Shown: positions 1-50,027 of the stretch, piece by piece
Layout of the letters: every line of letters starts with the position of its first letter
Numbering within the stretch: position 1 is the first letter of the stretch
From: Chiloscyllium plagiosum
Lineage: Eukaryota
Direction: 5' to 3'
DNA: 50,028 nt
NCBI RefSeq assembly: GCF_004010195.1
Contig: NC_057719.1
Location: 47,176,735-47,226,762 of the forward strand
Position numbers and translations under genes: made by a program
Notes under the pieces: model-generated
Databases searched by the model: none
What the model was told of the DNA's origin: nothing
Seen by the model: the letters and a program-made list of their open reading frames with translations, nothing else

Positions 1-82
1 TTGCTGGAAAAGCGCAGCAGGTCAGGCAGCATCCAAGGAGCAGGAGAATCGACGTTTCGGGCATAAGCCCTTCTTCAGGAAT
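1..82 (-). mobile_element. Penelope-like element terminal-repeat fragment (family A), truncated by window start
   Basis: Same sequence (GCTGGAAAAGCGCAGCAGGTCAGGCAGCATCC...CGACGTTTCGGGC) recurs >10 times in the window; related sequence is joined to GIY-YIG coding remnants at 26870-27360 and 39142-39473. Confidence 0.8.
47..82 (-). ncRNA. Minimal type-I hammerhead ribozyme motif
   Basis: Minus strand ATTC-CTGAAGA-A-GGGC-TTAT-GCCC-GAAA-CG-TC-GATT; core intact, helix I has one mismatch. Confidence 0.65.
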
Positions 83-589
83 GAGTATGTCATGAGCATG
101 TCTCTTAAAGGTGTTTTTATGTACTGACCGTAAGAGATAAAACAATAGGCACAACAGAAGGTGATGAGCGGTGGCGTAGGTAGTACTGAATTGTGTTTCA
201 GTGTTGGACGGGGTTGGGGGCACACAGGGGGTGTGGGCGGTGGTGGCGGGCAGGGAGCGGCGCAGATAAGGAAGCGGGAGCTCGCGGCAGTATGCTGCTG
301 CCTAGTCTCCTGAACAGCGAGCAGACTTAACAGAAAACTGTTCATGCCTTTCCTTTGTGGCTTGCAGACAATTATCCGAATAATTAACCATCCGAACGAA
401 ATAGTGTCCACCCATCTCGTTCGGATAATCGAGGTTCCTTGCTGCTGCCTAGTCTCCTGAACAGCGAGCAGACTTAACAGAAAACTGTTCATGCCTTTCC
501 TTTGTGGCTTGGAGACAATTATCCGAATAATTAACCATCTGAACGAAATAGTGTCCACCCATCTCGTTCGGATAATCGAGGTTCCTCTG
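83..589. mobile_element. Tc1/mariner Tigger/pogo-like non-autonomous DNA transposon, right end
   Basis: Ends in CGGATAATCGAGGTTCCTCTG followed by TA (590-591); reverse complement CAGAGGAACCTCGATTATCCG resembles Tigger-type TIRs; CpG-rich, so probably young; no left TIR seen in the window. Confidence 0.6.
293..586. repeat. 147-bp tandem duplication (2 copies: 293-439, 440-586)
   Basis: Near-identical direct copies (about 2 substitutions seen), both containing most of the putative TIR. Confidence 0.95.
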
Positions 590-1019
590 TAATTGTTTGT
601 TAATGCATGAAACTAGGTCCCTCATGCTCACCATGAAGATTCTTACCTACCTGTTAAAACCTGTTCCAAAAATAGATTCACTTTCCTTTTTTTTCAATGC
701 CAAGAATCTCTTATTTTCAATCTTGCAGCATTTTCCCAACTGTCTCATCATTATTCACATCGCTCAGAGGCTGGGAAAATTCCACCCCAGGTTTTGTCTT
801 TCACTACTCCTGCCTGAGGCCGGTGTAACCATTAGGTAAATTAGATAGTCGTCTGGAGAGCTAGAGTTTGGTGGCAAGGGATTGGTGTAACAATAAACTG
901 AATGAATTATTCATAAAAACTACATAAGTTAAGAAACAGCTTCAGCAGTAGGAATGAAAGGTCTGTACCTACTGATATACATCCATATACATTGACATAC
1001 ACAGAGATTTTCATGTACT

Positions 1020-1340
1020 TACATTGCAAGATCCTGAGGAAGCACCTTCCAAACTCACGACCACTTCCATCTGGAAGGACAAGAGCAGCAGATACGTGAG
1101 AACACCACCACCTGCAAGTTCCCCTCCAAGCCACTCACCATCCTGACTTGGAAATATACCACCGCTCCTGGCACAAAATCCTGGAATTCACTCCCTGAAG
1201 GCATTGTGGTCTACCTACAGCACATGCTGTGCCGTTGTTCAAGAAGGCAGCTCACCACCCCCTTTTCAAGGGCCACTAGGGAGTGGGAATAAACACTTGC
1301 CCAGCCAACAATGCCCTCGTTTCATGAGTGAATTAAAAGG
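1020..1340 (+). mobile_element. CR1/L2-group LINE 3' end (family 2)
   Basis: ORF2 C-terminal remnant (...KSWNSLP...) with TGAAT(A)n-type tail; homologous to 18680-18937 and 37830-38170. Confidence 0.75.
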
Positions 1341-2034
1341 AAGTCTTTCCCAAAATTTCATATGATATTCCTCAACCTGTTTATTAAGCAGTTTAACAAA
1401 TTTGTTTATTGATATGTCTATTCCAGATCTCCAAACCATCAATAATATCAAAGAACATAATTTAAATTTGCCTACTGTATCAAATGATTATTGATTGTGT
1501 AAAATTAGACATTGAATCATCTCGTAACAGCTGCAGGAACACATAGCAGTGCATCATGTGATCCATTGCAGATACTATGATGTTCTCTTCTTCTGGCAAA
1601 TATTCTGTGAAAAGTGCAGAACTATAAGAACATACAATCAGTAGCATAATGTTCGCCTTTCACATACATATAGAAATTGCATTTATATTAATGTGCAATT
1701 GAAAAAGTTAACTGTGAGGGGTTGAAGCACAAGGGTGAATATTGCACACTCCCATACTAGACCTGTCCCAACATTCTCAGACTGGAAGCTCTGCCTTTGA
1801 AACATTGAAAAATTCAGTACAAGTTTACCTCTCACCAACAACACTATCCACTCCAACCCATGTAATTGTAATGGAGATCAAATTAAAGGAAGCAACAAGA
1901 ATCTGAAATTGTCATGTGATGATAAAATGTTTGGGGAAATGCTTCTCTTCATGAAGTGGTTGACTGTGGCAGCGATGGGGATGGGGAGTTAATTATTCTG
2001 TTCTATCCTACTCACTTTACTCAGAGGAGGACAG

Positions 2035-2292
2035 GAAGTTTGCACAATCTCCTGGCTAATATTTATTCCTCAAACAATATCACTAAAAAAACAGGGTATC
2101 TGGTTATTATCTCCATGCTCTTTACGGGACAAATTGGCTGCTGTGTTCCTCCACATTACAACAGTGACTCACTTCAAAAATACTTCAGTGGCAGTAAAAC
2201 ACATTGGGATGTCCCGAGGTCACAAAGTGTTCTACAAAATTGCATGTTCTCTTCCTTTTGACTGTGATTGGTTCTATATAAATGCAAGTTCT
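2035..2292 (+). mobile_element. SacSINE1/AmnSINE-like (Deu-SINE) 3' portion
   Basis: AAATTGGCTGCTGTGTT..ACATTACAACAGTGACT.ACTTCAAAA.TACTTCA.TGGC.GTAAA...TTGGGATGTCC.GAGG...CTATATAAATGCAAG matches my recollection of the Deu-SINE 3' half with L2-type tail. Confidence 0.55.
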
Positions 2293-4149
2293 TATCATCA
2301 CAGAGGCTTATGAGATTGCTCATTCCAAATTGAAATTAGGCATCAAAGAGCTTTTATAGTTTGATTAGTTTATGTTATGCTTAGTCAAAACAGATTCTGC
2401 TACCATCATTTATTATTTATTTAAATATACTTCAACAAAGTACAAACCCTTAACAAAAATGTAAATCTAGATATTTTTAGTTTTTTTTAAGTAATACATC
2501 TCAACAGATAATCTTTCCCTGTCTGGTAATCCAAACAAATTAGAGGTCAAAACCATTGCATATAATCTGTTAACACAGGAAACAAGTGTAACTTGCTATT
2601 GGGAGTTAACGGGTAAAAGATCCCATTTCACCTCCTTCATTTACATTAGTTATTAAATCAACCGATTGAAAAATTTGGCAAACATAAGGAAGAGAAAACG
2701 AGCCTACAACAGCAGCAGCTCGGCTTTGGCTATTTCACTGTTTATGGGGATTCTTAACCTTAATTAAAACAGGGTGAGTTGAAAGGCTATTACTGCATCA
2801 GTCGTTTTTTGTTTGTATCCCCTTAATAAGATAACCAACAAAATCTGTTGAAAAGCATATGTAGTTAAAGTTCCTGCCTGGGGCAGCTCAGAATTGCAAT
2901 CCAGACCCTACCTCCTGCCTTCTGACGGAGGTCACAGATTAAAGTATCAGTGCTCTTTGTCACTCATCTGATTTTTCAACTAACTGATTTTCATCGATTC
3001 CATTGCGAGGTGGGGGTGCCACATAGATGTAAGATATCTCTGAGAGATGAAAATGGATATTATTCAGCACATTGTACCTAAATAGCTTGTCTGCCTGGTT
3101 GATCAACTTTCACATTATTCTCCCCTCTCAACTGCAGGGGACTTTGGGTGGAGGTAGATTTACTAATAGGAGAGAAAAGAAATGAAGGCTGTGCTTTCTT
3201 AGTCTAAAAGTTATGACTATAAAGTATTCTTCAAACTAAACAATTTTCATCTCTGTTTGTATCAAAGCACCAAAAGAACAAAACAAGACAGATATTCACT
3301 TATTTTCAAAAGTGGTGGGTGGTCTATACAGAATTGTACAGCAAAGCAAGGCACAAATAAAAACAAACCAGAAATGACCTACTGTTCCACAGTTTAAGCC
3401 ATAAAGCCTACCATGTGTGCTGTAAGATATAGTATAGAAGTTTTTGCAAGCTACTGAGACCCTCTATTTCTCTAATTGTCATTGGCTGTGCTCAAGAACG
3501 ATAGTCACATTTAGATTTCCTGTTTAATCCTGAAATGTGTGTTCTCATTGCTTACGTCATTCAAGCGATATTATTCTTATATTAAAAAGAATTATTTAAC
3601 ATTTTAATTGCTGACACAAGTCTCATTTAGTCATATTTTAACCTGACTTAAATACCTTTCATCTTGAATGGATAAGGAGTAGCTTTAGTGTATTAATTAT
3701 TCACTCAAATCCAATCAAAATTCAATTCTTACACATTAATTCATTCAAAAGGCTTGGAATGCCAAATAAAGACATACATGTGCTCAGTCATGTCTCAACC
3801 AAAGGGAACAAACACCAGGTGTCCTGTGAAGTATCTTTGAAGGGTTAAATAACAATCATTAGAACCTTTATACCACTAAAAGGATTCTTATGAAACCCTG
3901 AAAGGCACTTCCTGTCACCAGACTCTCTGACACTAACCAGCTCCTACTGACTGGAAATAACCACTTGAGAAACCATCACTTCCTTTACTTATCAACTTCT
4001 GAAGAAACAAACCTACATGAAGAAAAATTACTTAACTGCCTAATCCAGCTCTTTACACTTAAACTGTGTATGTTGCTGTTTACACTTTATGTAAACAATG
4101 CCACTGCTTTCATGTAAAGCAGACTTTCAGGGCTGCAAGTTTCCATGGC

Positions 4150-5400: not shown

Positions 5401-5774
5401 TGATCTTTTTAATGCAGCTAGTGATCTGATGGAACTGACCCGCTACTTATATAATCGTTTTTGGCCGTAATATTTATTTGAAGCCAGGAGTGAGCAAGTT
5501 GGGAAAATGTAGCTTTTCAGTAAGGAGACCCAAAATACGGATTTCTTATACATCATACTGCAATAACTGTAGGATAATTTTCAACTCTTTTAACTGTATG
5601 GGAGGTAGGGTGGAAGCTGCTTGGCAGCTGCAGTCAGGTAAGTCTAATCCCCTAGAGTGTGAGTCAGGCACTAGAGGTGGACTCAAGTATGATGATGGGT
5701 TCCAGTTGTGTAGAGGTTGAAATTTTAGATTGATGGAGATTCCTTCTTACGTCACAGATCTGATCATTGTTGTT

Positions 5775-5986
5775 AAGATTAGAGTGGTGCTGGAAAAGCA
5801 CAGCAGATCAGGCAGCATACGAGGAGCAGGAAAATCGACATTTCAGGGCAGGAGCCCTTCAGCAGGAAGGGCTTTTGCCCGAAACATCGATTTCCTGCTC
5901 CTCGGATACTGCCTGACCTGGTGTGCTTTTCCAGCACCACTCTAATCTTGACTCTAATCTCCAACATCTGCAGTCCTCACTTTCGC
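5775..5986. mobile_element. PLE fold-back insertion (family A)
   Basis: Inverted arms ~5775-5860 / 5866-5949, 37-nt right extension, TSD CTGATCATT(G/A)TTGTT at 5760-5774 and 5987-6001. Confidence 0.9.
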
Positions 5987-7290: not shown

Positions 7291-7325
7291 TGTAACACAT
7301 AGGAGACAATTGTCAGACCTGGAGT

Positions 7326-7522
7326 AAGTTTATTTGGAAGCTCTAGCTTTCGAAGCTCTGATTCTTCATCAGCTGGTTGTGGAGTAGAATCATCTCCACA
7401 ACCACTTGAAGAAGAAGCAGCACCCCAAAAGCTAGAGCATCCAAATAAACCTGTTGGACTAAAACCTGGTGTTGTATGATTTTTAACTTTGACAACCCCA
7501 GTGCAACACCGGCACCACCACA
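7326..7522. mobile_element. PLE fold-back insertion (family B)
   Basis: Inverted arms ~7328-7384 / 7394-7450; perfect 13-bp TSD TCAGACCTGGAGT at 7313-7325 and 7523-7535; minus arm has CTGATGA-A-GAATC..GCTTC-GAAAGCTA. Confidence 0.85.
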
Positions 7523-7947
7523 TCAGACCTGGAGTGTGGTGGTATCAGCTTGTTGAGGAATTTCTGATAAAAGAGATTACCATAGATAACTGGAGAATGA
7601 TTGATAAAGATTGACAGGCCAACTACCAACACAGTAAGTTAACAGGTATCAGCAGCTCATGATTGTGGAGATTAAGAGTTCAAGGCAGTATGGTCCAATT
7701 TGTTTTGAAGGCCATGGAGGAGAATTTCTGAAAATGGCAACCATTGTCTTGCTTAGGTCAAACAATTACAATTTCCATATTAAAAGGGGCAAATCATTCG
7801 AAACAGGTGATGGTTTTGGATACTGTTCAATTGGAGCTGGCAACTAAGGAGCATGAAGGTACTAACTTCATTTTGATGCCATCAGCATTACTACAACAAA
7901 AGTCAAAGGCAGAGACAGTTGCCCCCATTGACTCAATTCAGAGTATG

Positions 7948-8057
7948 AAAAGTGTGGTGCTGGAAAAGCGCAGCAGGCCATGCAGCCTGGCCTGCTGCGT
8001 TTTTCCAGCACCACACTTTTCAACTCTGGTCTCCAGCATCTGCAGTCCTCACTTTCT
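7948..8057. mobile_element. Short PLE fold-back insertion (family A) lacking the hammerhead core
   Basis: 35-bp inverted arms 7946-7980 / 7988-8022, 35-nt extension, TSD CTCAATTCAGAG(T/A)ATG at 7932-7947 and 8058-8073. Confidence 0.9.
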
Positions 8058-8789
8058 CTCAATTCAGAGAATGTTTGTTACTGAAGATTTGTCTCTTTTG
8101 ATCTGTTTTATTTTAAAATATGTGCATCTACAATTTAATAATTTTAATAAACAAATCTTCCACTTTTGACTCAGCTATTGTTTCTACACCTGAACTCATT
8201 TCAACTACACCAAGGGACTGTTTTTATCAATACTGTTTAAAGAGGGTATAATCATCTACAAAGATTATTTCAATAAATAGGTAAGTGATTGATATTATTC
8301 AATACACAAAAATGTTGGAATACAAACACATAAGTTGAATGTCAACAGATGGGCAAATTAATTATAGAATACAGCTTTTCTGAGAAAAACGTTTGGGGCT
8401 TCTTAAGTATCTTCCTGAAGGCCACTAAAGAAATATGGGAGTCTGTGTGTAGTCAGATGGGAATGTGCATAGGAGAATTTACAGCTGTGAAAGTATTTAA
8501 ACAGACCCAGGACCAAAACATTAAGGGCTGAAAATTAATGTACTCCCCCTTTTAGACATATTGTGGGGGAATGGGGGTCACAACTCCCAATCTGCCCATC
8601 CTGCTGAGCTCACAGCACGCAGACTTGTGCTGCCTCTCTTTATGTTGTGGTAGTGACATTCAGCTAAGAACGTCAACAGAGACCTGACAGTGTGCAAAGC
8701 TAAGAAATGTTTTAGCTAGCCTCCAGTTCTGAAAGGCAGCCTATTCCCCTTAAGATGCAAGCATCACAAGGAAGCTGCTGACAACCAGA

Positions 8790-10767: not shown

Positions 10768-10971
10768 AAAACCAAAAGAACTGCAGATGCTGTAAATCAG
10801 AGACAAAAATAGAAATTTCTGGAAAGACTCAGCAGGTCAGGCAGCATCTGTGAACAGAAATCAGAGTTAATGTTTCGGGTCCAGTGACCTTTCCTCAGAA
10901 TGTTAACTCTGATTTCTGTCCACAGATGCTTCCAGACCTGCTGAACTTTTCCAGAAATTTCTATCTTTGTC
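10768..10971. mobile_element. PLE fold-back insertion (family C)
   Basis: Arms ~10802-10870 / 10903-10971, 34-nt left extension, perfect TSD ATCAGTTAATTA at 10756-10767 and 10972-10983; minus strand CTGAGGA-A-AGGTC-ACTG-GACCC-GAAACATT hammerhead-like motif at ~10869-10898. Confidence 0.85.
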
Positions 10972-12600: not shown

Positions 12601-12871
12601 AATTCCCATTTACTTTAAGAGAAAACAAGGTATGATCTTGGTATTATTGCTTCCTCATGAAAATAAAATGAGAAGCAAAATGTTTTGTGATCTGGAAACT
12701 CATCAGTTAAGTATCAATCAAGATTTGAAGATTGTATTGAGCTTCATGAATGAAAATTACAAAAAAGATGATCTGTTAGATATTGATGAGACAAGATCAG
12801 GTTGTGACAGACTTTGGTAAGTAGTTATTCAATAGGGGAATGTATGATGGACTATAATGATCTAAAAGATT

Positions 12872-13146
12872 TGGAGGAGCAGGTGTTGGACTGGGGTGGA
12901 CAAAGTTAAAAATCACACAACACCAGGTTATAGTCCAGCAGGTTTATTCGGAAGCACTAGCTTTCAAAGTGCTGCCTCTTCATCAGGTGATTGTGGAACA
13001 GGACCAGAAGACACAGAATTTATAGCAAAAAAGGTTACAGTGTCATGGAGCTGAAACAACCACCTGATGAAGAGGAAGCGCTTTGAAAGCTAGTGCTTCC
13101 AAATAAACCTGCTAGACTATAACCTGGTGTTGTGTGATTTTTAACT
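12872..13146. mobile_element. PLE fold-back insertion (family B) with two hammerhead-like motifs
   Basis: Arms ~12903-12994 / 13056-13147, 31-nt left extension, perfect 14-bp TSD TGATCTAAAAGATT at 12858-12871 and 13147-13160; CAC-CTGATGA...GAAAGCTA-GTG at 12955-12989(-) and 13061-13095(+) with weakened helix II. Confidence 0.9.
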
Positions 13147-13199
13147 TGATCTAAAAGATTGCAAAACATTCAAGTTAGAGATTCCTCATTCAGTGGTCA

Positions 13200-17090: not shown

Positions 17091-17415
17091 GGAGGCAGTA
17101 TGGTGGCTCAATGGTTAGCACAGTTCAAAGGACCCAGGTTCAATTCCACCCTCAGGTGACTGTCTGTGTGGAGTTTGCACATTTTCCCCGTGCCTGTGTG
17201 GGTTTCCCCTTGGTGCTCCCATTTTGTCCCACAGTCCACAGATGAGCAGCCCATGCTAAATTGCCCATCATGTCCAGGGATGTGCAGGCTAGATGGATTA
17301 GCTATGGGAAATGCAGGGATAGGGACGGACGTGGGTCTGGGTGAGATGATCTTCAGAGGGTCGTTGTGGATTTGATGGGCTGAATGGCCTACCTACACAC
17401 TATAGGGATTCTATG
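17091..17415 (+). mobile_element. HE1-type tRNA-derived SINE
   Basis: A box TGGCTCAATGG, B box GGTTCAATTCC, GTCTGTGTGGAGTTTGCACATT core, CR1-like tail GGGCTGAATGGCC. Confidence 0.9.
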
Positions 17416-18153
17416 AAGTTACAATGTCCAATGGTTCACTTTAACAATGCTATTTTTCTACATCTAGTGTTCCGTTCTGCATTTTGAGTTTGTATTTTTT
17501 TCTAAGCCTTTGTTAATTTTCCAGATTGGCAAGTTGGTATACAAGTTGTTGTTAAATCAATGGAGGCAGCAAAACCTGCTTATCATCATTTCCTCTCCAA
17601 AAATGATCAGTTCTGTCAAACAAGAATAACTGTTCAGAACATCCAGTTAAAATTTACTACTGGTATTCCAGGGCTTTGTTGAAACAGATGGCATTTAATC
17701 AGCAAATTATGTGGGCAGTTTACCAACATCCCTCGGGAACAGAGGAGTGTTTCAATTCACTTTTGTCTTATCTATTGACACAGCAGGCTGTGCAGTAATC
17801 ATGTAGCATCACAAATCAAGCTTCTTTCTTCACTGATCATGTCATCACAAGCAAATTTAACAGTCTTTCATATAATGTGGCAAAAAGTGTTCCTTTTCTC
17901 ACTGGAAAACTCATTCGCCTCAGTTCTCGGTGTAATATAAAGCTGCTTTCTGACCTTTAGATCTTTAATCACTTCAGATAAATAATGACCTTAGACTCAG
18001 TGAAGCTGAAACTGCACGGGGTTCCACTGGCCTCCCATCGTAACTCCAGACAGAAATTTCAGCCCTATTTATAGAATTAACTGCATGTGTTACGTAGCCA
18101 GAATCTAAACCTCCTCTTCAGATTTCATCCCACAACTGCAGGAGGATAGTTTC

Positions 18154-18278
18154 CTAATGAAGGGTTTATGCCTGAAATGTCGATTCTCCTGCTCCTTGGA
18201 TGCTGCCTGATCTGCTGCGCTTTTCCAGCACCACATGCTTTGACTCTGATCTCCAGCATCTGCAGTGCTCACTTTCTC
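18154..18278 (+). mobile_element. PLE terminal-repeat solo insertion (family A), decayed hammerhead
   Basis: TSD CTGCA(G/A)GAGGATAGTTTC at 18136-18153 and 18279-18296; core decayed (CTAATGA...TGAAATGTC). Confidence 0.85.
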
Positions 18279-18679
18279 CTGCAAGAGGATAGTTTCAGTC
18301 CTGATCATGCTCCAATATCTTGTCTAAGTGACTACTGTTCTACTGGAAGCCTATGACAGTGATCACTGGTGAGTTATTACTACGCAATGATTGTCAAAGC
18401 CCAGTTCTCCCTTCACTTGACCTCTACACACACACACACCCTTGCAGCGGAGGTCAATGGAATGTTTGTTGATATCCTAACTCATGGGCATTCACACACA
18501 CTGTACCAACTAAACCTCAGTGAACTGACGACCAGCTTAGAGATGGGGAATCTGGATCTTTCTATCTTGACAGTACACATATTTTTGTCCTTAGCTAGAA
18601 GTAATGTAGTCTGGAAAATTGTGCCTGAAATTCTTCAGGGACTTTACTGTGCAGCACATTGGGAAGATGGAGTAGGCAA

Positions 18680-18937
18680 CCCAAAAAGCACTCTCCAAAA
18701 CCATGGCCACTACCATTTAGAAGGACAAGGGCAGCAAATGGAAATATACCCCAATTTCTGTAGTGGTTCTGGGTCAAAATCCTGGAACTCCCTCCTTAAC
18801 TGCATTGAGAGTCTACCTATACCCAATTGCAGTGGTTCAGAAATGAAGCTCATCAGTACCTACACAAAGGTAACTAAAGATGGGCAATGAATACTGGCAC
18901 AACCAGAAAAGCCCACATTCCCTGAATGAATGAAAAA
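18680..18937 (+). mobile_element. CR1/L2-group LINE 3' end (family 2)
   Basis: GSKSWNSL motif in ORF 18369-18890; TGAATGAATGAAAAA tail. Confidence 0.75.
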
Positions 18938-21643: not shown

Positions 21644-21874
21644 AACTACCTTCGTAGAAACTATATATGATTAAAAAGAAATGTCAGACAGCACTGAAAT
21701 AAATTAAATATGACTGGATTACTAATTGTAAGTTGAAACTTTATTGCTGGAACAGCACAGCAGGTCAGGCAGCATCAACTACCTTCGTAGAAACTATATA
21801 TGATTAAAAAGAAATGTCAGACAGCACTGAAATAAATTAAATATGACTGGATCAGATTTGATTACTAATTGTAA
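21644..21874. repeat. ~88-98 bp direct duplication flanking a 45-bp PLE fragment
   Basis: Copies 21644-21731 and 21777-21874 (second has 10 extra bp); intervening 21732-21776 GTTGAAACTTTATTGCTGGAACAGCACAGCAGGTCAGGCAGCATC matches the start of the 25864 copy. Confidence 0.9.
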
Positions 21875-22064: not shown

Positions 22065-22274
22065 TCAAAAAGAGCACACAACACCAGGTTATAGTCCAAC
22101 AGTTTATTTGGAAGCACTAGCTTTCAGAGCGCTGCTCCTTTGTCAGGTAGCTAGCTGATGAAGGAGCAGTTCTCCGAAAGTTTGTCCATCCAAATAAACC
22201 TGTTGGACAATAATCTGGAGTTGTGCGATTTGTAACTTTGTCCACCCCAGTTCAACACCAGTACCTCCACGCCA
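22065..22274. mobile_element. PLE fold-back insertion (family B), older
   Basis: Arms meet at TCAGGTAGCTAGCTGA (~22143-22158); probable diverged TSD TTATTCCAACTG (22053-22064) / TTATCCCAGCTG (22275-22286). Confidence 0.8.
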
Positions 22275-22302
22275 TTATCCCAGCTGGAATGGTGATCATC
22301 TG

Positions 22303-23150
22303 ATAGAAACATTGGAGCTGGAGTAGGCCATTCAGCTCCTTGAGCCTCCTCTGCCATCGAGCTCATGGCTGATCGTTAAGTTAATACAATTTTCCTGCAT
22401 AATTGCCATTTTTCCTTAATGTTACTAGTAAATAGAAAGCTATCAATCTCTCTTCGGATATTACTTATTGACTGAGCTTCCACAGCCATCTGGGATAGGG
22501 AATTTACAAAGGTTTACCATGTTCTAAAGTTCCTCTTTACTTCAGTCCTAAATGGTTTGTCTTTTATTCTGAGACTGTGTCCCCTCAATCTGGACTCCAC
22601 AGCCAGGTGAATCATTCTTTCTGTTTAATTGTTTAACTGTCTGTTGCTTTAAGAATTTTGCAAGTTTTTTTAACGTAAGATCACCCTTCATTCTTTTAAA
22701 CTCTAGAGAATACAGGCGTATTCTGGATCAGTGGTGCTGGAAGAGCACAGCAATTCAGGCAGCATCCGAGGATAGGCAAAATCGACGTTTCGGAGGCCTG
22801 TATGACAGGCTGCAGCCTGTGGGGCCCAGGTGAGTTTTGTCTGTGTATGACCGCAAGGTTTAATCTCCTCTCTCTGGGGAGGGGGGCTGGCTTTTACCAG
22901 GACCTCTGGTTAACCGGGTTCTTTTGCCCGAAACGTCGATTTTGCCTGTCCTCGGATGCTGCCTGAATTGCTGTGCTCTTCCAGCACCACTGATCCAGAA
23001 TCTGGTTTCCAGCATCTGCAGTCATTGTTTTTACCTCGTTGAGAATACAGGCGTAGTCTCATCTGTGTCTCCCCACTGAACAAACCTACCATCCCAGGAA
23101 TCAGTCTCATGAATCTTTGCTGCACTCCTTCTGTGGTAAGTATATCCTTC
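22303..23150 (-). mobile_element. Old CR1-type LINE 3' portion, interrupted by a PLE insertion
   Basis: GGAGTAGGCCATTCAGC tail; ORF 22910-23125 starts MQQRFMRLIPGMVGL, typical of CR1 ORF2. Confidence 0.7.
22721..23040. mobile_element. PLE fold-back insertion (family A) with 127-bp unrelated spacer
   Basis: Arms 22720-22793 / 22928-23001 nearly identical, 39-nt extension, perfect 15-bp TSD GAGAATACAGGCGTA at 22706-22720 and 23041-23055. Confidence 0.92.
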
Positions 23151-25863: not shown

Positions 25864-25956
25864 GTTGAAACTTTATTGCTGGAACAGCACAGCAGGTCAG
25901 ACAGCATCCAGGGAACAGGAGATTCGACGTTTCGGGCACAGGCCCTTCTTCAGGAA
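25864..25956 (-). mobile_element. PLE terminal-repeat solo insertion (family A)
   Basis: Perfect 14-bp TSD TTAGTTTGCTGCCA at 25850-25863 and 25957-25970. Confidence 0.9.
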
Positions 25957-25957
25957 T
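25922..25957 (-). ncRNA. Minimal type-I hammerhead ribozyme motif, intact
   Basis: ATTC-CTGAAGA-A-GGGC-CTGT-GCCC-GAAA-CG-TC-GAAT: helix I ATTC/GAAT, helix II GGGC/GCCC, palindromic ACGT helix III, GUC site. Confidence 0.8.
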
Positions 25958-26869: not shown

Positions 26870-27360
26870 CTTCACAGAGACAGAAAAGCTGCAGATGCTT
26901 GGTGAAACATCTCAGCCAGGCCCGCAGGGGCCATCTTGACCTCCCAGTCATTGTCCATTTTAATTCCCCTTCCGACTCCCTTTCCAACATGTCCATCCTT
27001 GGCCTCCTCCTTTGCCACAATGAATCAAACCACAAATTGGAGGAACACCTCATCCTCTGCCTGTGCAGCCTACAGCCTGGAATCTCCAATTTCAAATAAC
27101 CTCCCTTCCCATCACTCGACTCCCTTCCCAATCCCTCCCCCCTCCTTTCCATTCCTCTCATCGACCCTTCCTTTGTACCCTCTGCCTGGGTTCACCTATC
27201 CTCACCTCATCACCCTGTGCTCGCCCGACCCCCTTTATCCGCAGCTCTCCCTAAGCCCACTCCCCCATGTCCTGAAGAAGGGTTACACCCAAAACGTAGA
27301 CTTCTCCACCTCCTGATGCTGCCTGGCTTGCTGTGTTCTTCCAGCCTCCTGCTTGTCTGC
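26870..27360 (+). mobile_element. Penelope-like retroelement 3' end (GIY-YIG endonuclease C-terminus plus terminal repeat)
   Basis: ORF 26899-27099 KHL...DLPVIVHFNSPSDSLSNMSILGLLLCHNESNHKLEEHLILCLCSLQPG; pyrimidine-rich UTR; GTC-CTGAAGA-A-GGGT-TAC-ACCC-AAAA-CG-TA-GAC (27269-27301, G12 mutated to A). Confidence 0.85.
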
Positions 27361-29827: not shown

Positions 29828-30093
29828 TTAGATTCCCTACAGTGTGGAAACAGGCCCTTCAGCCCAACAAGTCCACACCGACCCTCCGAAGAGTAACCCA
29901 CCCAAACCCATTTCCCTCTGACTAATGTATCTAACACTACCTAACCTGCACATCTTTGGACTGTGGGAGGAAACCCACGCAGACACGGGAGAATGTGCAA
30001 ACTCCACACAGACAGTTGCCCAAGGCTGGAATCAAACCTGGGACCCTGGTGCTGTGAGGCAGCAGTGCTAACCATTGAGCCACCGTGCCGCCC
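29828..30093 (-). mobile_element. HE1-type SINE
   Basis: Reverse complement of GGGCGGCACGGTGGCTCAATGGTTAGCACTGCTGCCTCACAGCACCAGG...; internal deletion relative to the 35425 copy. Confidence 0.92.
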
Positions 30094-31997: not shown

Positions 31998-32340
31998 TTA
32001 TATCGCTTGATAATTGCAAAGATATCTAATCTTCAAATTATAGATATTGGCATAAAAGTAAGTTGCGGCAGGCCAGCCTGGCCAAGGGCTAATGCCCGAA
32101 ACGTCGATTCTCCTGTTCCCTAGATGCTGCCTGACCTGCTGCGCTTCTCCAGCAACACATTTCCATCTCATGTGGAAACACAATCCTGTGTCATGTGGGG
32201 AATCATGGAGATTATATCGCTTGATAATTGCAAAGATATCTAATCTTCAAATTATAGATATTGGCATAAAAGTAAGTTGCGGCAGGCCAGCCTGGCCATG
32301 TGGAAACACAATCCTGTGTCATGTGGGGAATCATGGAGAT
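31998..32340. repeat. ~129-bp tandem duplication; first copy carries an 86-bp PLE fragment
   Basis: Copy 1 31998-32211 with insert 32085-32170 (AGGGCTAATGCCCGAAACGTCG...); copy 2 32212-32340 uninterrupted. Confidence 0.92.
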
Positions 32341-33163: not shown

Positions 33164-34101
33164 TGTTATGATGGAGAAGTCAAATCCCTCTGTTAATTAA
33201 AACCATTTACCCAGAAAAGCTTGCCTTGCCTCATAATGTATAAAAAGGTGAGGGGGTGACAGAGAACTCCTGATTTCCACTATTTAAAGAAAAAAAATTC
33301 CTAACTCTAATAGTGAACACGAAACAAAACTAGTAACAAACCAAACACTGTTTCCCTTAACTGAACACAATCCTATTAACATGTTGTTCCAGTAACACAC
33401 TTATTAAATACTACACTAACTTAATCTCAAGTCCACAGTCTCTGTCTTCTCCGCTGTCTTCAATCTTCTGTCTGCTGATCTCACTTGGTTGTCTTCTTTC
33501 TTTTAACTGCCAGTATGTTTTATAAAGTTACTTTTTGATAAAGAGTGTCTTCTAATTTCTTTGACAGCAAGATGTTAGATGGGCAGTTAGCTCTCTGGCT
33601 CTACGGCAGTTGCTCTACTGATCATTGGCAGTTGCTCTCTGACCAAATTTTCAAAATTCCCCGGTTTTAAAACCCCCAACATCATTCCCTGCCATAGGTC
33701 TGATATCTAGGAGAAAGTGAGGACTGCAGATGCTGGAGATCAGAGCTGAAAATGTGTTGCTGAAAAAGCACAGCAGGTTAGGCAGCATCCAAGGAGCAGG
33801 AGAATCGACGTTTCGGGCATGAACCCTTCATAGGTCTGATTTCATCAAAACAATAAATTCAAACTCAATTTAGTTTTAGTATCCTGAGCATAATATAAAG
33901 TAATTGGTTAAATTTGAATTGTTGTCAAAACAGCAACCAAAACTCAGGTATCCATTTAACAGCCATTTGTTACATGTATCTATTTGGGAACAGTCCATCT
34001 CTAGCTGTTCTGTTCTACAGCTGGGGTTGTACTTTAAATTTACTTCAAAAATTCAGAAAACACTCTCTAAAGTGAACATACATGTGTTCTACTTCATAAT
34101 G
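33164..34101. mobile_element. Putative solo LTR (Gypsy-type)
   Basis: Starts TGTTATGA, ends TCATAATG (6/8 inverted match), 4-bp TSD GTAT at 33160-33163 and 34102-34105; splits CR1 ORF1 cleanly. Confidence 0.65.
33705..33828 (-). mobile_element. PLE terminal-repeat solo insertion (family A)
   Basis: Perfect 12-bp TSD CATAGGTCTGAT at 33693-33704 and 33829-33840; 5' end truncated inside the hammerhead core. Confidence 0.9.
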
Positions 34102-35424: not shown

Positions 35425-35760
35425 GGCAGCACAGTGGCTCAGTGGTTAGCACTGCTGCCTCACAGCACCAGGGACCCAGATTTGATTCCAGCCTCGGATG
35501 ACTGTCTGTGTGGAGTTTGCACATTTTCCCCGTGTCTGTGTGGGTTTCCTCTGAGTGCTCTGGTTTCCTCCCACAATCCAAAGATGTGCAGGTTAGTTGA
35601 ATTGGCCATGCTAAAATGCCCATAGTGTTCAGGGATGTATAAGTTAGCTGCATTAGTTGGGGCAATGTAATAGGATAGGGGTATGGGTCTGGGTGGGATA
35701 CTTTTGGAGGGTCAGTGTGGACTTGTTGGGCTAAATGGCCTGTTTACACATTATAGGAAT
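35425..35760 (+). mobile_element. HE1-type SINE, near full length
   Basis: GGCAGCACAGTGGCTCAGTGGTTAGCACTGCTGCCTCACAGCACCAGGGACCC head; CR1-like tail. Confidence 0.92.
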
Positions 35761-36914
35761 TAAATTCTACTCTATGATCATCTCAGACAGTCTTTTGCAC
35801 AGTTTGATTGAACTGACTTCTACATTTTACACATCAGCAATTACCCTACCTCCACAACCCCAATGATGTAATCCTTATTCACTTCTCCATTTCTCCATCC
35901 TGTAACCTGTCCACTCCTGGCAAATCCTGCAGGCTTAATTAATCAGCACTCAGTTAGGAGCCTTGGAAAGTGATGTGGAGATAGGGAAGCACCTTGGGGT
36001 GATGTAATACCTGTATAGGACTGGCTGATCACAGTTCGGAGATTATCGCTCAAGTAGCTCATAGGTCAAGGAGCGCTAAGGCTTTTGAGAGTGGGGATAT
36101 AGACTGGAATTGGGGACAGGTGGATAGGGATAGCAAACAGATCAGGATGGTAGAGGTTTGGAATTTGATAGGCAGTCTAGGGATTGAGAACAACTAGGAG
36201 GGAAATGAAGTGACAATTGGAAATTAGTGTGGGATAGGTGGGTCTTATAGGATAGATATGGTTCACACAAAGAGCTGGGAAATCCAGGCTTGGATCAGAG
36301 AAGACATGGCTGAAGATGCCAGGTATGAAAAGGATTGGGACTGATTAGGAGGAAAATTGATTTGGGTAAGCATATCTCTCGCAGCAGAAACAAAAATGAT
36401 TGGAACAGCACTGAGGTGATCAGTGAACGAGAGTGACACTTGTGGACTGTACTGTGGGGGGAACAGTATTGCAGCTGATGGGAAAATGGAAAATAAGGGT
36501 CTGAGACTAAGGATTCCACTCCAATACTTGGAGGAAACATGAAAGGGCTGAATATGGCCAACAAGGACTCATAACTCTCCCTGGGATTTGTGAGGCGCTC
36601 TCCTACTTTTGCAGCCAAACAAACCAAATTCAAAGAAAGCTTTCTCTACCACTTCTGTTTAGCTCTTTGTAAACTGAAAAAAACTAGTTGGAACTTGAAT
36701 AGATGCAATTAGCTTTATATTTACTTTGCAGCAGTGTCATAACCAGGCACAATAACCTTCTTTTTACTTTGTAGATCCAAAACTGATTTCAACCAGTAAA
36801 TAAACAAAATATGTCAATGACTATGCCACTGATTCACCTTCAGTGCAAATGTTATTGTTATCTACCCCAAAGTGTCCAAATCAGAAAAAAAAATCTCTCC
36901 TCTGGTAGGTGCCA

Positions 36915-38860
36915 TGGCTTGTTGAAAGTTATGGCTGTCAGATGTAAATCATTTCAGTGCCAGGACTTCTGCAAGAGTTCCTCAGTGTAGTGTCCTAAAC
37001 CCAACTACCTTCAGCTATTTCATTCATGAGTACCCTTGACTGACTGTGGCAGCAAAGAGCCCTAGCAATACTGGCGTTAATGGAAATCAGGGGGACACCT
37101 CTCTGCTGGTTGGAACCATACCTGGCACAAAGGGAGGTGATTGTGGCTGCTGGAAATCAGTCATCTCAGCTCCAGCATATCTCTGCAGGAAGTCCTCAAG
37201 GTAGTGTCCTAGAGCCCAACCATCCTCAGCTGCTTCATCAATGATCTTCCCTCCATCATAAAGTCACAAGTGGGGAGGTTCACCAATGATTGCACAATGT
37301 TCAGCACCATTCGTGATTCCTTCAATACTGAAGCAGGACATGTCCAAATGCAACAAGCTCTGGACAATATCCAGGATTGGGCTGACAAGTGATAAGTAAC
37401 AGTTATGTCACACAAGTGCCAGGCATGACCATCTCCAGCGATAGAGGATCTAACCATCAATTCTTGGCATTCCATGGTTGAATTCTATCACTGAATTCCC
37501 CACTATCAATATCCTGGGGGATGCCATTGTCCAGACACAGAATTGGACTAGTTATATAGTACATTGGCTAAAAGAGCAGGTCAGAAGCTTGGAATACTGC
37601 AATGAGTAATTCACTTCCTGAGTCCCTAAAACCTGTCCACCTTTGGAAGCTAAGTCAGGAGTGTGAGGAATACATCCCAATTGCTTGGATGTGTACAGCT
37701 TCAAAAGTATCTACAAATCTCAACACTATCCAAAAAAATCCAATCTACTTTATTGGCATCTCATCCATAAAATTCACTCCCAACTCCACCAACACTCAGT
37801 AGCAGATGATATGCATTACCTTCAAGGTACACTGCAGAAATTCACCAAGGCTCCTTAGAGAACACTTTCCAAACACATGACCACTTCCATCTAGAAGGAC
37901 AAGGGTGGCAGATACATAGGATCACCACCATCTGCAAGTTCCTCTTCAAGCCACTCAACATCACCACTTGGAAATATGCCACCTTTTCTTCAGTTACTCC
38001 TGGTTCAAAATCCCAGAACTCACTCCTTAACAGCATTGTGGCTGAACCTATTGCACATAGACTGCAGTGATGCAAGATGTCAGCTCACCACCATCTTCTC
38101 CAGGGCAACCACAGACAGGTAATAATTATGGGCTCAGCCAGTAATGTCTACATTCCATGAATGAATAAGAAACACCTTCCCTCCATCATAAGGTCAGACG
38201 TGGGGATATTCTCTGATGACTGCACAATTTTCAGTACTATTCGCAACTATTCAGAAGCAATTGCTAATACATTGGATCACCTGGGTACTATGCAAGCTTG
38301 ATCTAAGAAATGGCAAGTAACATTCATGTCACACAAATGCCAGATCATGACCATTCTGAAACAAAACAGAACCTGACAAGCTCCCTTTGAAATTCAGTGC
38401 CATTATTGTTGCTGAATCCCCCCAGTATCAACACCTCAGAGGTTTCCATTGACCAGCAATGGCAAGATCACCCCTATAAATATTGCAGCTACAAAAGCAG
38501 ATGAGAGGCAAGAAATCCTGTAGTGAGTACCTCACTTCATGTTTCCTGACTGCCCACCCATCTTCTACAAGATACAAGTCAGAAGCAGGATGGAATATTG
38601 TCCACTTGTCTGGTTGGCTGCAGCTCCAACATTTAAGAAATTCAGTATGATCCAGGACAAGCAGCCTGTATGGATGGCACCCTGTCCACCCCCTTCAAAA
38701 CTCAGTCCCTTCACTGCTGTTGTACAATGGCAGTAGTGAGTAAACCCATTTACATGACATACTGCAGCAATTCATCAAGGTTCCTTTGATAGCACCTTCA
38801 AGTCCTAAGAACTCTACTTTCTAAAGGGACAAGGGCAGCAGATGAATGTGAGCAATAACA
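36915..38860 (+). mobile_element. CR1/L2-group LINE (family 2) RT/3' fragments, one copy nested in another
   Basis: RT motifs PQGSVL.PT..SCFINDLPSII...G.F..DC at ~37195-37295; outer copy 36915-37029 resumes at ~38175; inner copy ~37030-38172 ends in TGAATGAATAAG tail. Confidence 0.8.
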
Positions 38861-39141
38861 TATCTTCACCCTCCTCTGAGTCATTCCCCATCAAATTATC
38901 TCACCATTCTGAGCTGGAAGAATCCTATGCTTCTATGAATGCAGCAGTTTAGTATATATTAGCATATATGAAGTAAACTTAATTCCCCCACGCAATACAG
39001 TCTAACACTGCAGAGCTAGAAAATTCTTCAGTTAAGGTGCAAATTTAATACATTCACAAGCACAAGACTGAATCCCCTTAATTGTGAGCACCTTTTGACT
39101 CTGCTAAATGTAATATTGCAACTGGCGTTAATTTATAAACC

Positions 39142-39473
39142 AACATTGGGGAGACTGGGCGCCTCCTAGCAGAGCGCTTTAGGGAACATCTCCGAGACAC
39201 CCGCATTGATTTGTCCAGACTTGTCCGACCTGCCTAGCTCCTTTTCCACCTATCCACTCCACCCTCTCCTCCCTGACCTATCACCTTCATCTCCTCCCCC
39301 ACTATTGTACTCTATGCTACTTTCTCCCCACCCCCACCCTCCTCGAGCTTATCTCTCCAAGTTTCAGGCTCTCTTCCTTTATTCCTGATGAAGGGCTTTT
39401 GCCCGAAACGTCGATTTTGCTGCTCGTCGGATGCTGCCTGAACTGCTGTGCTCTTCCAGCACCATTGATCCAG
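39142..39473 (+). mobile_element. Internally deleted Penelope-like element 3' end
   Basis: 39145-39204 encodes IGETGRLLAERFREHLRDTR (GIY-YIG YIG..R...R..EH region), joined to a pyrimidine-rich UTR and family-A terminal repeat. Confidence 0.85.
39381..39416 (+). ncRNA. Minimal type-I hammerhead ribozyme motif
   Basis: ATTC-CTGATGA-A-GGGC-TTTT-GCCC-GAAA-CG-TC-GATT; core intact, helix I has one mismatch. Confidence 0.7.
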
Positions 39474-39639
39474 GAACTTATCCACTACCCACTCATCAGT
39501 ATTTGCAGCCTTTGGCAAAGAGAAAAAAACAAACAAAATATACGCATGAAAAATTGATTTTGGTTTTTGTTACTTTCTCTTACATTTAACAGTTCAATTG
39601 TAATAGTGTCTGAAGTAAATACTGAAAATGTGGCTTATC

Positions 39640-39998
39640 CTGTATAGAATGAGCTGCCAGATGGTGTGGTGGAGGCTGGTACAATTGCAACATTTAAGAG
39701 GCATTTGGATGGGTATATGAATAGGAAGGATTTGGAGGGATATGGGCCGGGTGTTGGCAGGTGGGACTTGATTAGGTTCGGATATCTGGTCGGCATGGAC
39801 AGGTTGGACCTTCCTGGTGAAGGGCTTTTGCCCGTAATGTCGATTTTTCTGCTCCTCAGATGCTGCCTGACCTGCTGTGCTTTTCCAGCACCACTCTGAT
39901 GTAAACTCTAGTTTCCAGCATCTGCAGCCCTCACTTTTGCCAGGTTGGACCGGAGGGTCTGTTTCCATGCTGTACATCTCTTTGACTCTATGACTCTA
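39640..39998 (+). mobile_element. CR1 LINE 3' end interrupted by a PLE
   Basis: VVEAGTIATFKRHLDGYMNRKDLEGYGP; (TGACTCTA)n tail. Confidence 0.9.
39811..39940 (+). mobile_element. PLE terminal-repeat solo insertion (family A), decayed hammerhead
   Basis: Perfect 11-bp TSD CAGGTTGGACC at 39800-39810 and 39941-39951. Confidence 0.9.
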
Positions 39999-47004: not shown

Positions 47005-47150
47005 GAAAATAAGAAATAAGAGCATCAGTGGGTCATTTAGCCCCATGTGCCTGCTTCACCATTTAATGGGGTCTGATAATGACTTCAACTCCACTTTCCT
47101 GTCTGCCTCCATAACCTTTGACTCCTTTGGTAGATCAAAATCTGCTTAAT
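47005..47150 (-). mobile_element. CR1-type LINE 3' tail fragment
   Basis: ATAAGAAATAAGAGCA..AGTGGGTCATTTAGCCCC...TCAACTCCACTTTCCTGTC. Confidence 0.55.
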
Positions 47151-47619
47151 ACAGTGATGGAGAAGTGCAAAGTACAGTTCAATTTAATTTAGTAGATGCG
47201 AGAGGGAAAGATGAGAAGCGATAAGACAGAACAAAACAAAATTTTACATTATAAAAACTGTCAACAGATTACACCTAAAGAAATGAAACTCCATTCTTGC
47301 AACAGTGCTAGAGTGACTAACTGGAGAAGGGCAGAAGAGGTGAGGACCAATAGTTCATCAAAGCTGTGTGGCTGTGCGTATGTACAACCCCTCCAAGGGT
47401 CTGGGCACGGCAATTAGCATGCCAACACCAATCGCAGCGCAGATGTCCAGTTCCAGGAATCAATGCCATGAATGGGCCTCAGAAGTCTGTGCAGCTGAGC
47501 AAATAACTAAGAAATAATGCAGTGAGCACAGGCAGGCAGCATCACTGAGAGGAATGGGCAAGATGTGGACCCTGTGACAAGGAGTATATTAGGATCATTT
47601 TCTGGCATGTATTTAATAT

Positions 47620-47760
47620 TCTTTTAACTAGAGAAAGTGAACGGAATGAGAGTCATTTTAGGGGAAGTCATGGCAAGGCAACTTGAGCCAGTGGAATGCT
47701 CCTCCTATACGAAGTCAGGAACACTTCCAGTGTCCATGTTGATCTTGCAATCTGTTAGCT
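47620..47760 (+). mobile_element. CR1 ORF1 N-terminal fragment
   Basis: MARQLEPVECSSY..EVR..SSV resembles the CR1 ORF1 zinc-finger start. Confidence 0.35.
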
Positions 47761-49805
47761 TATCTTTATAAAATCGACTGCACAGAAGCAGCCCATTGAG
47801 GCTGTGCAAGTAAAGGTTATCCATCTTGAGTAGGGATCACCAATGGACTAATTCAAGTGAATCCAATTATCCTGAAATTGATTAGGTAGGTCTTTAAAAG
47901 GGATCATTCAGCTTTATTAGTCTCTCCATATACAATTTCTCATATAAGTTAACCTGTTACAACTTATTTTGATCTTGCTTCAACTGAAAAAAAAACTTTC
48001 AACAAATTTTGTAGGTCCATTGCATACTTATCAAATTTCATTTCATTCTTAAGTTAAAATTTCCTGTTGTTCTGTTATGTCTGGTTTGAACACAACTGAC
48101 AGAATTGATTATTTTCAAATGAAAAGAGCTGTTTAAAATAAGTTGGCTCCCCAACTTAATTAAACACTGATGTTGAGTGAGGGGCTAACTGGCAATGGGA
48201 ATTGCATGATGAAGAAAATTTTATGTTAAACTTCTATTAATACTTTCAAGTTTTCAGCCAAGTGCTTGTTTATTTTCAGTAAAATTGGAAATATGGGTTT
48301 ACCTCTCTCTGCCATCTTTCAAACTTTAACAATAATGAATATTTTCTTCTTGAATCAGCATTTTCTGAAGTTAATTTCACAATTTGAAACTTCTCATTAG
48401 ATCAATAATTACTAATTTAAGTAAAATGATTAGGTCATATGCCTTTTTTAAAAGTAAAAGCAATCCAAAATACCAATGAATTCTACTAAATTGTGTTACT
48501 TTTATACAAGATAAAACAAGTGAATTTGACAAAATATTCACTAACTGACTTGCTGATCATCTCTAGATATAACTTATTGAAAGTCAAATTAGTAAGTTTT
48601 GTTCTTATTTGTCTAAAATTCGTTTATGAATAACTGAATAAATTTAAAAAGTCTGTTCAAATTCTAAATTATACTATCTATGTAAGGCTTGCATATATTT
48701 CTAACATTACTCAAAGCTCAAATAGACTATTTCTGCTGTGCAGTTTATTTGAATCAGAGTAAGAAACTCATCTGGAACAATTTAAGACATTCATTTTTGC
48801 CATGAATTTGCATTTTTAAATATATAATATCACAAATATTGCACGTAGGTTCAATTTAGATTATAATCAGCACTTACATTTGCAGTTTCTACAAGCTATA
48901 TTTTCTGGCCCAACTTTCAGGCAAAATGAACACTAATTATAGAACTCAAGCCAGGCAGATGTTAACTAAAGGGTAGATAATATTTCAGCCCAGCTGGGTA
49001 TTCTGTAGCAGGCACAAATGCTATTTTTGAAAAGGATCAAATCTAGTGAATTATCTGACAGAATGTACTTCAAGTCATCATCCATTGCTTTTGTAATTAC
49101 AGTTGCATTTTAAAGGTTACATCAATAACAAGAAAGAATGAGGTTTCAAAGGTCATAATCGTCTCTTTAAGGAATTTACTAACTCAGCATTTTTTCATGG
49201 AAGTAGATTCAGTCATTTACATATAACGAATTATGAAATACTGTGTTGTATTGCTGTTGAAAACTGGAGAAAACCTCAATTGATTCTAAACTTTTATATC
49301 TTATTCTTAATTTTAAAACACCTTCTGCAGTAGCTTTACTTAATTGATGTATTAATGGTGCGAATATTAAATAGTAAAGTCTATACTTTTGCAGAGCATA
49401 GTAACAGACAATCTAAAATAATTGCAAATACTAATGCACACATTAAATGAAGACTCATTGTTAATCCTAAGATATATGTTCTTTCCACTCTTCAAAATAT
49501 TATTTTTAAATTAAGAATAAATGTAAAATAACTGTTTTACACTGAAATAAAGTTACTTCATTCAAAGTATCAGCTCCTCAGATATGTTTACCCAAGCAGG
49601 ACATTTGTATTACAACTTGTCATTTGCTTTCAATTATATTCAAACTAATAATGCCTATAGAAGTATTGTGCCTATTCTGAAAGAGATACACAAAACGTAG
49701 TGTAGCTCAAATTGTTTTAGACTCACCCAATTGACAAACACAACTGTACCAAAGTTAAAAATCACACAATACCAGGTTATAGTCCAGCAGGTTTAATTGG
49801 AAGCA

Positions 49806-49840
49806 CACTAGCTTTCGGAGCGACGCTCCTTCATCAGGTG
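49806..49840 (-). ncRNA. Minimal type-I hammerhead ribozyme motif, intact
   Basis: CAC-CTGATGA-A-GGAGC-GTC-GCTCC-GAAA-GC-TA-GTG: helix I CAC/GTG, helix II GGAGC/GCTCC, palindromic AGCT helix III, CUA site. Confidence 0.8.
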
Positions 49841-49992
49841 ATTGTGGAGGGCTCGATCGTAACACAGAATTTATAGCAAAAATTTGCAGTGTGATGTAAC
49901 TGAAATTATACATTGACTTCAATGTATAATTTCAGTTACATCACACTGCAAATCTTTGCTATAAATTCTGTTACGATCGAGCCCTCCACAAT

Positions 49993-50027
49993 CACCTGAT
50001 GAAGGAACGTCGCTCCGAAAGCTAGTG
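49993..50027 (+). ncRNA. Minimal type-I hammerhead ribozyme motif (one helix II mismatch)
   Basis: CAC-CTGATGA-A-GGAAC-GTC-GCTCC-GAAA-GC-TA-GTG. Confidence 0.7.

Follow-up and report, generated by a model that had tools for sequence, protein, structure and literature searches.

The window analysed here, a stretch of 50,028 nucleotides from the genome of Chiloscyllium plagiosum (contig NC_057719.1, positions 47,176,735 to 47,226,762), carries end-pieces of two lineages of putatively Neptune-type Penelope-like elements (PLEs), which contain the known minimal hammerhead ribozyme (HHR) motif of this element class. Most of the short pieces are probably dead copies, made by run-off at the capped 5' end of the element RNA. 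In a more detailed form, which we favour only slightly, the approximately one million stubs of this genome would be strong-stop-like products: transcription would begin at the first hammerhead base, a two-headed complex would prime both target strands at two fixed sites close to the capped 5' end, and the outcome would be cap-marked palindromes with one long and one short end. As the link between HHRs and PLEs is known, the motif itself is ordinary, and the interest of the system is carried by its scale (about 3.5 % of the sampled DNA) and by a testable run-off model.

PLE end-pieces are abundant in the window and throughout the genome

A search with profiles built from natural copies detected 25 PLE end-pieces in the window, 16 of which form 8 head-to-head pairs, and not a single piece in reversed control DNA. 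They correspond to about 17 insertions or one per 2.9 kb, which is in agreement with the density of about one PLE piece per 3 kb put forward in a sequence-only reading of the same DNA. At each of the ten sites listed in that reading, the hammerhead motif is indeed present at the given coordinates and strand. An intact core (CTGANGA-A-helix II-GAA-palindrome-H) was found in eight window copies, with C3 at 78(-), 7372(-), 12986(-), 13064(+), 25953(-), 39385(+), 49837(-) and 49996(+), and helix II is partly decayed in four of these (7372, 12986, 13064 and 49996). Two of the ten listed sites are broken, 27269-27301 by a change of G12 to A and 10869-10898 by a change of G10.1 to A together with a non-palindromic ACAT. 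Ribozyme remnants were seen at 19 inspected sites of the window. Using a strict descriptor (core, helix II of at least 4 pairs, palindrome and helix I of at least 3 pairs), we obtained 4 matches in the window, whereas 40 shuffles gave 0.025 on average and 1 at most. No Rfam model recovered these motifs in a search of the window; microRNA-like Rfam matches at 49864-49971, 7945-8045 and 7353-7425 were below threshold, are located on the palindromes and were discarded.

Genome-wide numbers are based on 100 evenly spaced 10-kb stretches of large scaffolds (even sample; 956,910 non-N bases, small scaffolds lying outside it), on 13 further stretches (fresh sample; 123,572 bases) and on a genome size of 3.56 Gb. 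The even sample contained 367 pieces, which cover 3.5 % of the bases and are present in 91 of the 100 stretches. With 37 more pieces in the fresh sample, the total is 404 in 1.08 Mb or one end-piece per 2.7 kb, so that the window (25 in 50 kb) is close to typical. Extrapolated from these large scaffolds, the genome would contain approximately 1.3 million PLE end-pieces. The conserved hammerhead core was found 93 times in 957 kb (0-4 in shuffles), the core together with helix II 105 times in 1.08 Mb and the strict descriptor 19 times in 957 kb; the latter two extrapolate to about 330,000 and 70,000 copies. These counts agree with the earlier expectation of very many ribozyme-bearing insertions in this genome and, if the extrapolation is right, this is possibly the largest genomic set of HHRs.

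The pieces are ends of long elements

Self-comparison of the window pieces resulted in two lineages, A and B, and not in four. The helix II types GGGC, GGGT and GGGTC have a common downstream sequence and therefore belong to one lineage (A), and the GGTC/GACC helix, previously taken as a separate type, is a decayed GGGTC/GACCC. Going upstream, the longer copies of lineage A show a pyrimidine-rich 3' untranslated region (UTR), a GIY-YIG domain, a CX4CxxC linker and a reverse transcriptase (RT). Lineage B has a separate 3' UTR and the same CX4CxxC linker before a GIY-YIG-type motif. A third lineage (C), found elsewhere in the genome and not in the window, does not have this linker. A CX2-5CxxC linker is a marker of the Neptune and Nematis clades (PMC8557442; here and below, statements on published systems refer to the available portions of the cited sources). 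Named from the linker, lineages A and B are most likely Neptune-type, and its lack suggests a Poseidon-type element for lineage C. RT was observed in lineages A and C only. The lineage A parent contains an open stretch of 600 codons with a weak RVT_1 match (E=1.7e-4, under the Pfam cut-off), and a comparison of the RT stretch with solved structures gave no match.

In long elements, the order is promoter-position box, hammerhead, tail, start codon, RT, zinc finger, GIY-YIG, 3' UTR and again the repeat. The HHR thus lies in the PLE terminal repeat, which is found both after GIY-YIG and 3' UTR and before the start of the frame. At the 5' end of a long lineage A element (locus L299), repeat, hammerhead, tail and frame start are present in one natural copy, the start codon lying 166 bases downstream of C3. 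The assembly, which has many gaps, yielded no intact full-length element, and very long open frames in the retrieved loci were rejected, as they consist of runs of N. Insertion of PLEs into PLEs is frequent, with nested A-in-B structures at L083, L176, L311 and L158. In a subgroup of lineage C (C1; L191-L220) the reading frame extends nearly to the hammerhead, and many copies are 99 % alike across 111 bases, so this subgroup was active recently.

The 5' ends of lineage A pieces pile up at the hammerhead

Among the 128 lineage A pieces of the even sample that reach the core, 82 end 0-6 bases upstream (mode at -4), 6 end at 7-19 and 40 extend at least 20 bases upstream. The same 5' edge was found for 9 of 13 core-reaching lineage A pieces in the fresh sample. 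For young lineage B, the main matches show most ends between 0 and -14 and the next ones at about -79. No peak of piece ends was detected at the cut site, and ends defined by cleavage were therefore rejected; an apparent peak at -10 in one locus set turned out to be an artefact of the query used.

Long copies contain a box at the position expected for a TATA element. In lineage A this box is YTTATC (-37 to -34; at least 91 of 106 long copies), and in lineage B it is TATAAA (-40 to -35; 28 of 31 long copies). The box keeps a fixed distance, about 30-32 bases before an A, while the intervening DNA varies. This A sits in an initiator-like context. Furthermore, pieces that begin at this base often carry an extra G in front of it, namely 15 of 28 lineage A pieces at A(-4) versus 30 of 132 other ends (p=0.002), and 6 of 8 lineage B pieces at A(-8) versus 14 of 58 (p=0.008). 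Outside the even sample, the excess was 5/10 versus 11/59 for lineage A and 4/5 versus 8/38 for lineage B. An extra G is a capping mark at the 5' junctions of full-length LINE-1 copies (PMC11702581).

Paired insertions combine one long and one short 3' end

The 3' ends of the pieces fall on two points about 35 bases apart in each of the three lineages. Neighbours of the same lineage within 300 bases (n=94) are mostly arranged head to head (75), with 5 tail to tail and 14 on the same strand, and 150 of the 367 pieces in the even sample are paired. One long and one short end were combined in 48 of 53 classifiable pairs (p=7e-10; 22 further pairs were not classable). In the fresh sample, we found 9 head-to-head and no tail-to-tail pairs and the combination of long and short in 6 of 7, which adds up to 54/60 for both samples; across all retrieved loci, which are partly query-chosen, it was 126/137. 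Target duplications of at least 8 bases, often 9-15 bases long, flank 40 of 67 pairs in comparison to 1 of 190 controls. Both arms reach C3 in 12 of 45 long and short pairs, and the filler at the junctions was not upstream element sequence in the cases inspected. Cross-lineage A/B neighbours account for 5 of 194 head-to-head cases, none of them with a shared target duplication; they were rejected as pairs, and the readable ones are nested insertions.

A proposed run-off model for the short pieces and its alternatives

To account for this anatomy, we propose that Neptune transcription starts at the sharp 5' edge of the pieces, at -4 for lineage A and at -8 or shorter for lineage B, so that the hammerhead would form the first 36-40 bases of the RNA. 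The protein of the element would nick both target strands about 9-15 bases apart, and reverse transcription would begin inside the RNA at two points. When the points near the 5' end of the RNA are used, the enzyme would run off after 90-130 bases and sometimes copy the cap as an extra G. If both nicks prime, one per point, end-joining would link the two cDNAs in head-to-head orientation. The templates of these copies would be uncut RNA, and the resulting stubs, having no promoter box, would be dead on arrival and then decay. For the PLE of anole, two internal start sites that define the tail and cutting and extension of both strands were observed in vitro (PMC11167929).

Several observations weigh against this model. 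The lineage B ends are spread from 0 to -14, with more of them at -3 than at -8, and the positions -4 and -8 were picked after looking. Numbers in the fresh sample are small, with the G in 2 of 4 pieces at -4 and no lineage B piece at -8. A random background cannot be assumed for the G, since the DNA at the junctions is either the inverted partner or filler. In lineage C, which has a TATAAA box as well, the ends are scattered over hundreds of bases and do not pile up 30 bases after it; an extension of at least 20 bases was seen in 86 of 100 pieces, and the prediction of a start site thus failed in this lineage. RNA reads on L299, taken from 2 in 100 of the run of a poly(A) single-cell library possibly of another species, showed neither a pile-up of starts or ends nor a strand bias. 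Another raw RNA run had 0 reads on L299, and no RNA dataset was listed as containing the RT stretch. In three other runs (207, 110 and 402 records) loose ends peak at the -4 base, which is mixed with subfamily differences and not proof. In addition, the promoter of Penelope in D. virilis is TATA-less and internal (PMC2377424), with the hammerhead further downstream (PMC4209133). Finally, subfamily variants are usually shared between the arms of a pair (47/50 sites), which is also expected if one arm is copied from the other, so that the models are not separated by this criterion.

Such copying is the essence of fold-back self-priming, an explanation we consider unlikely: the 3' end of a single cDNA would fold back at short palindromes located within or close to the hammerhead, the cDNA would copy itself, and the endonuclease would trim one tail. 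Here, the inverted arm would be a DNA copy of the first arm instead of a second reverse transcript. Fold-back has been proposed for inverted PLE junctions (PMC3846280), and the one-sided tail has been attributed to endonuclease resolution (PMC8557442). The concordance of the arms is well above that of shuffled arms (47/50 versus 0.60; 62/70 versus 0.74), many junctions have overlaps of 1-3 bases and cross-lineage neighbours lack a shared target duplication, except for one inside lineage A. The value for young lineage B pairs (47/65 versus 0.70 shuffled) is uninformative because the query had selected one variant. Simple fold-back would not predict the 12 of 45 pairs with the whole core in both arms, often with non-element filler between them. 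Neither is the long arm favoured as the complete one (9 versus 8 in lineage A; 4 versus 6 in lineage B), and the arms of two young pairs (L004 and L021, both query-picked loci) differ at 2-3 recurring subfamily sites. We attribute an equally small chance to ordinary 5' truncation of cDNA from the 3' repeat, caused by stalling or microhomology at the hammerhead edge and with no transcription start there. An extension into the 3' UTR is indeed seen for about a third of the lineage A pieces (40/128), helix II is stable (pair probability 0.8-0.98) and short self-complementary words are present at the edge. A structural block, however, should act before the structure is copied and not after it. Moreover, lineage C has the same motif but no pile-up, and the extra G and the fixed distance to the box would be unexplained.

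The sequence-only reading had assumed mini-element families, and dedicated non-autonomous mini-elements or retrozymes, whose short masters would be transcribed, cut by the hammerhead, perhaps circularised and spread in trans by the PLE protein, would account for the huge copy number and the sharp 5' edge. Vertebrates, among them one cartilaginous fish, are reported to carry tandem retrozymes that derive from PLE repeats (bioRxiv 10.64898/2026.07.22.740005), and L089 contains a single hammerhead-bearing tandem unit with a length of about 224 bases. We nevertheless regard this explanation as very improbable. The ends show no peak at the cut site, the window contains no hammerhead-bearing tandem array and 14 of 94 close neighbours share a strand. 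The pieces are ends of long Neptune or Poseidon elements with a 5' extent and junctions that vary from copy to copy, and the short ones begin after the conserved box at the promoter position. Judged from this box and from the junctions inspected, they would have neither an upstream promoter of their own nor the shared master structure of a self-propagating element resembling a short interspersed element (SINE).

If the run-off model is true, these pieces are a genome-scale in vivo record of a PLE insertion mechanism that has so far been seen only in vitro. In that case, the mRNA would begin with the hammerhead and would lose its cap upon cutting, which hints at a ribozyme that controls the mRNA of the element rather than the making of templates. 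Because of the scale and the regular anatomy, the insertion of PLEs can be studied in this genome as in a natural experiment.

The hammerhead is conserved between lineages and decays within them

An extra base between A9 and 10.1 is A in the Neptune types and U in the Poseidon type. This extra base and the palindromic helix III, both pointed out in the sequence-only reading, are present here and had already been described (Cervera and de la Pena, 2014). The first pair of helix II (10.1-11.1) is G-C or G-U in 14 of 15 aligned copies. Of the 93 sample copies with an intact core, 61 have ACGT or AGCT as the helix III palindrome, and the rest are mostly explained by CpG decay. For helix I, the proposed ATTC/GAAT pairing applies to the subfamily at 25922 only. 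The commonest type, which includes 47-82 and 39381-39416, has ATTC/GATT with a U.U mismatch (72 copies in the retrieved loci versus 8 with four clean pairs), so the clean pairing suits one subfamily.

Compensatory changes between the lineages support that paired bases were swapped. In 15 hand-picked copies of all types, 81.7 % of the helix cells are paired in comparison to 60.5 % after shuffling, with 22 double changes instead of 7.5, and slid partners pair in 16-49 %; because of the relatedness of these rows, which had also served to draw the structure, the values are support and not a probability. Covariation was seen only between lineages, and the copies decay neutrally. In one homogeneous subfamily, in which CpG sites decay fast, the core differs in 7 of 288 cells and the flank in 13 of 1301. 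The excess conservation of the core over the flank that had been expected does not appear at this level, which is what dead copies should show. Selection on inserted copies was therefore rejected; it acted on the source elements. Mixed groups gave lower rates for the core (43/965 versus 325/3971 and 14/330 versus 121/1567), but these are biased because the pieces were picked for a core match.

In folding predictions, helix II is stable, helix I is weak, particularly in the commonest type, and a 4-base intermolecular helix III reaches -1.7 to -2.5 kcal/mol. This prediction is in line with the low or protein-dependent activity reported for relatives. By analogy, the hammerhead would show no activity on its own and would need a dimer or the protein of the element for cutting.

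Comparison with known systems

The hammerheads show all published sequence features of the minimal type-I ribozymes in PLE terminal repeats, as the sequence-only reading had proposed. In common with the minimal HHRs of metazoan PLEs (PMC4209133), they have the core CUGANGA-H, G10.1-C11.1, GAAA, a palindromic 15.2/16.2 and a 3-5-bp helix I, and they share with them the location in the PLE terminal repeat (pLTR), mostly solo truncated copies, some pairs on opposite strands and compensatory changes. They differ by the U.U mismatch in helix I of the type most common here, and the alignment in the portion of this paper available to us has no rows from cartilaginous fish. Its counts are about 4,000 for coelacanth and 9,000 for Xenopus versus the approximately 70,000-330,000 extrapolated here, with different descriptors.

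Endonuclease-bearing PLEs (PMC3846280; PMC8557442) show the same 5' truncation, adjacent inverted copy, Neptune CX2-5CxxC linker and 30-40-base tail at one end only, and the insertion units described here likewise have an inverted partner, a one-sided tail and a target duplication. In contrast to these reports, the typical insertion here is the repeat alone (100-240 bases), and the duplications are mostly 12-15 instead of 8-10 bases long. The rule of one long and one short end was counted here, while those papers suggest self-priming and endonuclease resolution instead of run-off at a capped 5' end. The Poseidon element PAc of anole (PMC11167929) shares the two internal RT starts that define the tail, and both of its target strands are cut and extended in vitro. 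Its hammerhead is dispensable for insertion and its template is uncut RNA. PAc is Poseidon-type with the start codon within the hammerhead, whereas the pile-up described here concerns Neptune pieces, with a start codon 166 bases after C3. The examined portion of this paper contains no description of run-off stubs of this kind. Non-LTR (long terminal repeat) retrozymes (bioRxiv 10.64898/2026.07.22.740005) are also hammerhead-bearing, non-coding and derived from PLE repeats, but form head-to-tail tandem arrays in contrast to the dispersed solos or head-to-head pairs found here. At least two head-to-tail hammerhead units do not occur in the window. The one case elsewhere is L089 (1-500), where a unit of about 224 bases, comprising hammerhead, tail and first frame bases, is repeated head to tail and thus arranged like a retrozyme.

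The hammerhead link, the inverted partner, the one-sided tail and short target duplications are thus already published. Our literature search, with Repbase, Dfam and most subscription journals outside its coverage, found no description in sharks and none of run-off stubs, and, within the same limits, no paper with extra-G and TATA evidence for PLE pieces.

PLE pieces and further repeats of the window

The PLE pieces of the window are listed below by coordinates; lineages A and B are both putatively Neptune-type, and pairs are head to head.

1..82, minus strand: lineage A end-piece, core intact, GUC cut site, helix I with U.U mismatch; cut by the window start.
5772..5986, pair: lineage A, short arm (-) and long tailed arm (+), both ribozymes decayed; 9-base target duplication.
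7323..7525, pair: lineage B, core kept in the minus arm; 13-base target duplication.
7944..8058, pair: lineage A, both arms end short of the ribozyme; 12-base target duplication.
10777..10971, pair: subfamily of lineage A that has diverged (helix II type GGGTC/GACCC), with a decayed ribozyme and a target duplication of 12 bases.
12862..13149, pair: lineage B, long arm (-) and short arm (+), both cores intact, plus arm beginning at the predicted start base (-8); 14-base target duplication.
18151..18284, plus strand: long solo piece of lineage A with a broken core; target duplication of 12 bases.
21733..21777, minus strand: lineage A fragment without ribozyme, flanked by identical 76-base direct repeats (21644-21719 and 21777-21852).
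22069..22275, pair: decayed lineage B, with the short arm on the minus and the long arm on the plus strand; a target duplication was not found.
22719..23040, pair: lineage A, arms begin within helix II; clean 15-base target duplication.
25864..25957, minus strand: short solo piece of lineage A that begins at the predicted start base (-4), its ribozyme being the best formed of all (helices I and II of 4 bp each); target duplication of 14 bases.
26895..27345, plus strand: longer 5'-truncated copy, putatively Neptune, with GIY-YIG frame end, pyrimidine-rich 3' UTR and decayed ribozyme (helix I AGTC/GACT, helix II GGGT/ACCC).
32078..32165, plus strand: lineage A solo short piece, core missing, between identical 87-base direct repeats (31998-32084 and 32212-32298).
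33710..33831, minus strand: lineage A solo long piece, begins inside the core; 12-base target duplication.
39140..39473, plus strand: 5'-truncated copy, putatively Neptune, with GIY-YIG remnant, internally deleted 3' UTR, intact core at 39385 and short end.
39811..39940, plus strand: lineage A solo long piece, core broken, within the 3' piece of an older long interspersed element (LINE); 11-base target duplication.
49750..50028, pair: young lineage B, both cores intact, both arms extending about 80 bases into the 3' UTR and including the TATAAA box; cut by the window end.

In the pair at 22719..23040, about 130 unrelated bases (22794-22920) are captured between the arms. The direct repeats of 76 and 87 bases around two of the pieces are far above the usual duplication of 9-15 bases and are either long target duplications or assembly artefacts. 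The window starts and finishes within PLE pieces (1-82 and 49750-50028), and the DNA past its end is N; PLE repeats may be a cause of assembly breaks. At or before the short end of both lineages, at 39430-39460 (+) and 49750-49790 (-), a branch-point-like word is found together with a pyrimidine run and CAG, an arrangement which we take to resemble a 3' splice site.

Apart from the PLEs, a 147-base unit with an internal inverted repeat is present at 293-586 in two near-identical tandem copies. Further dispersed repeats were found at 17094-17413, 29829-30092 and 35425-35761 as well as at 1028-1339, 18674-18937 and 37831-38172; they presumably represent a SINE derived from a tRNA and a CR1/L2-type LINE, of which the 3' end is present.

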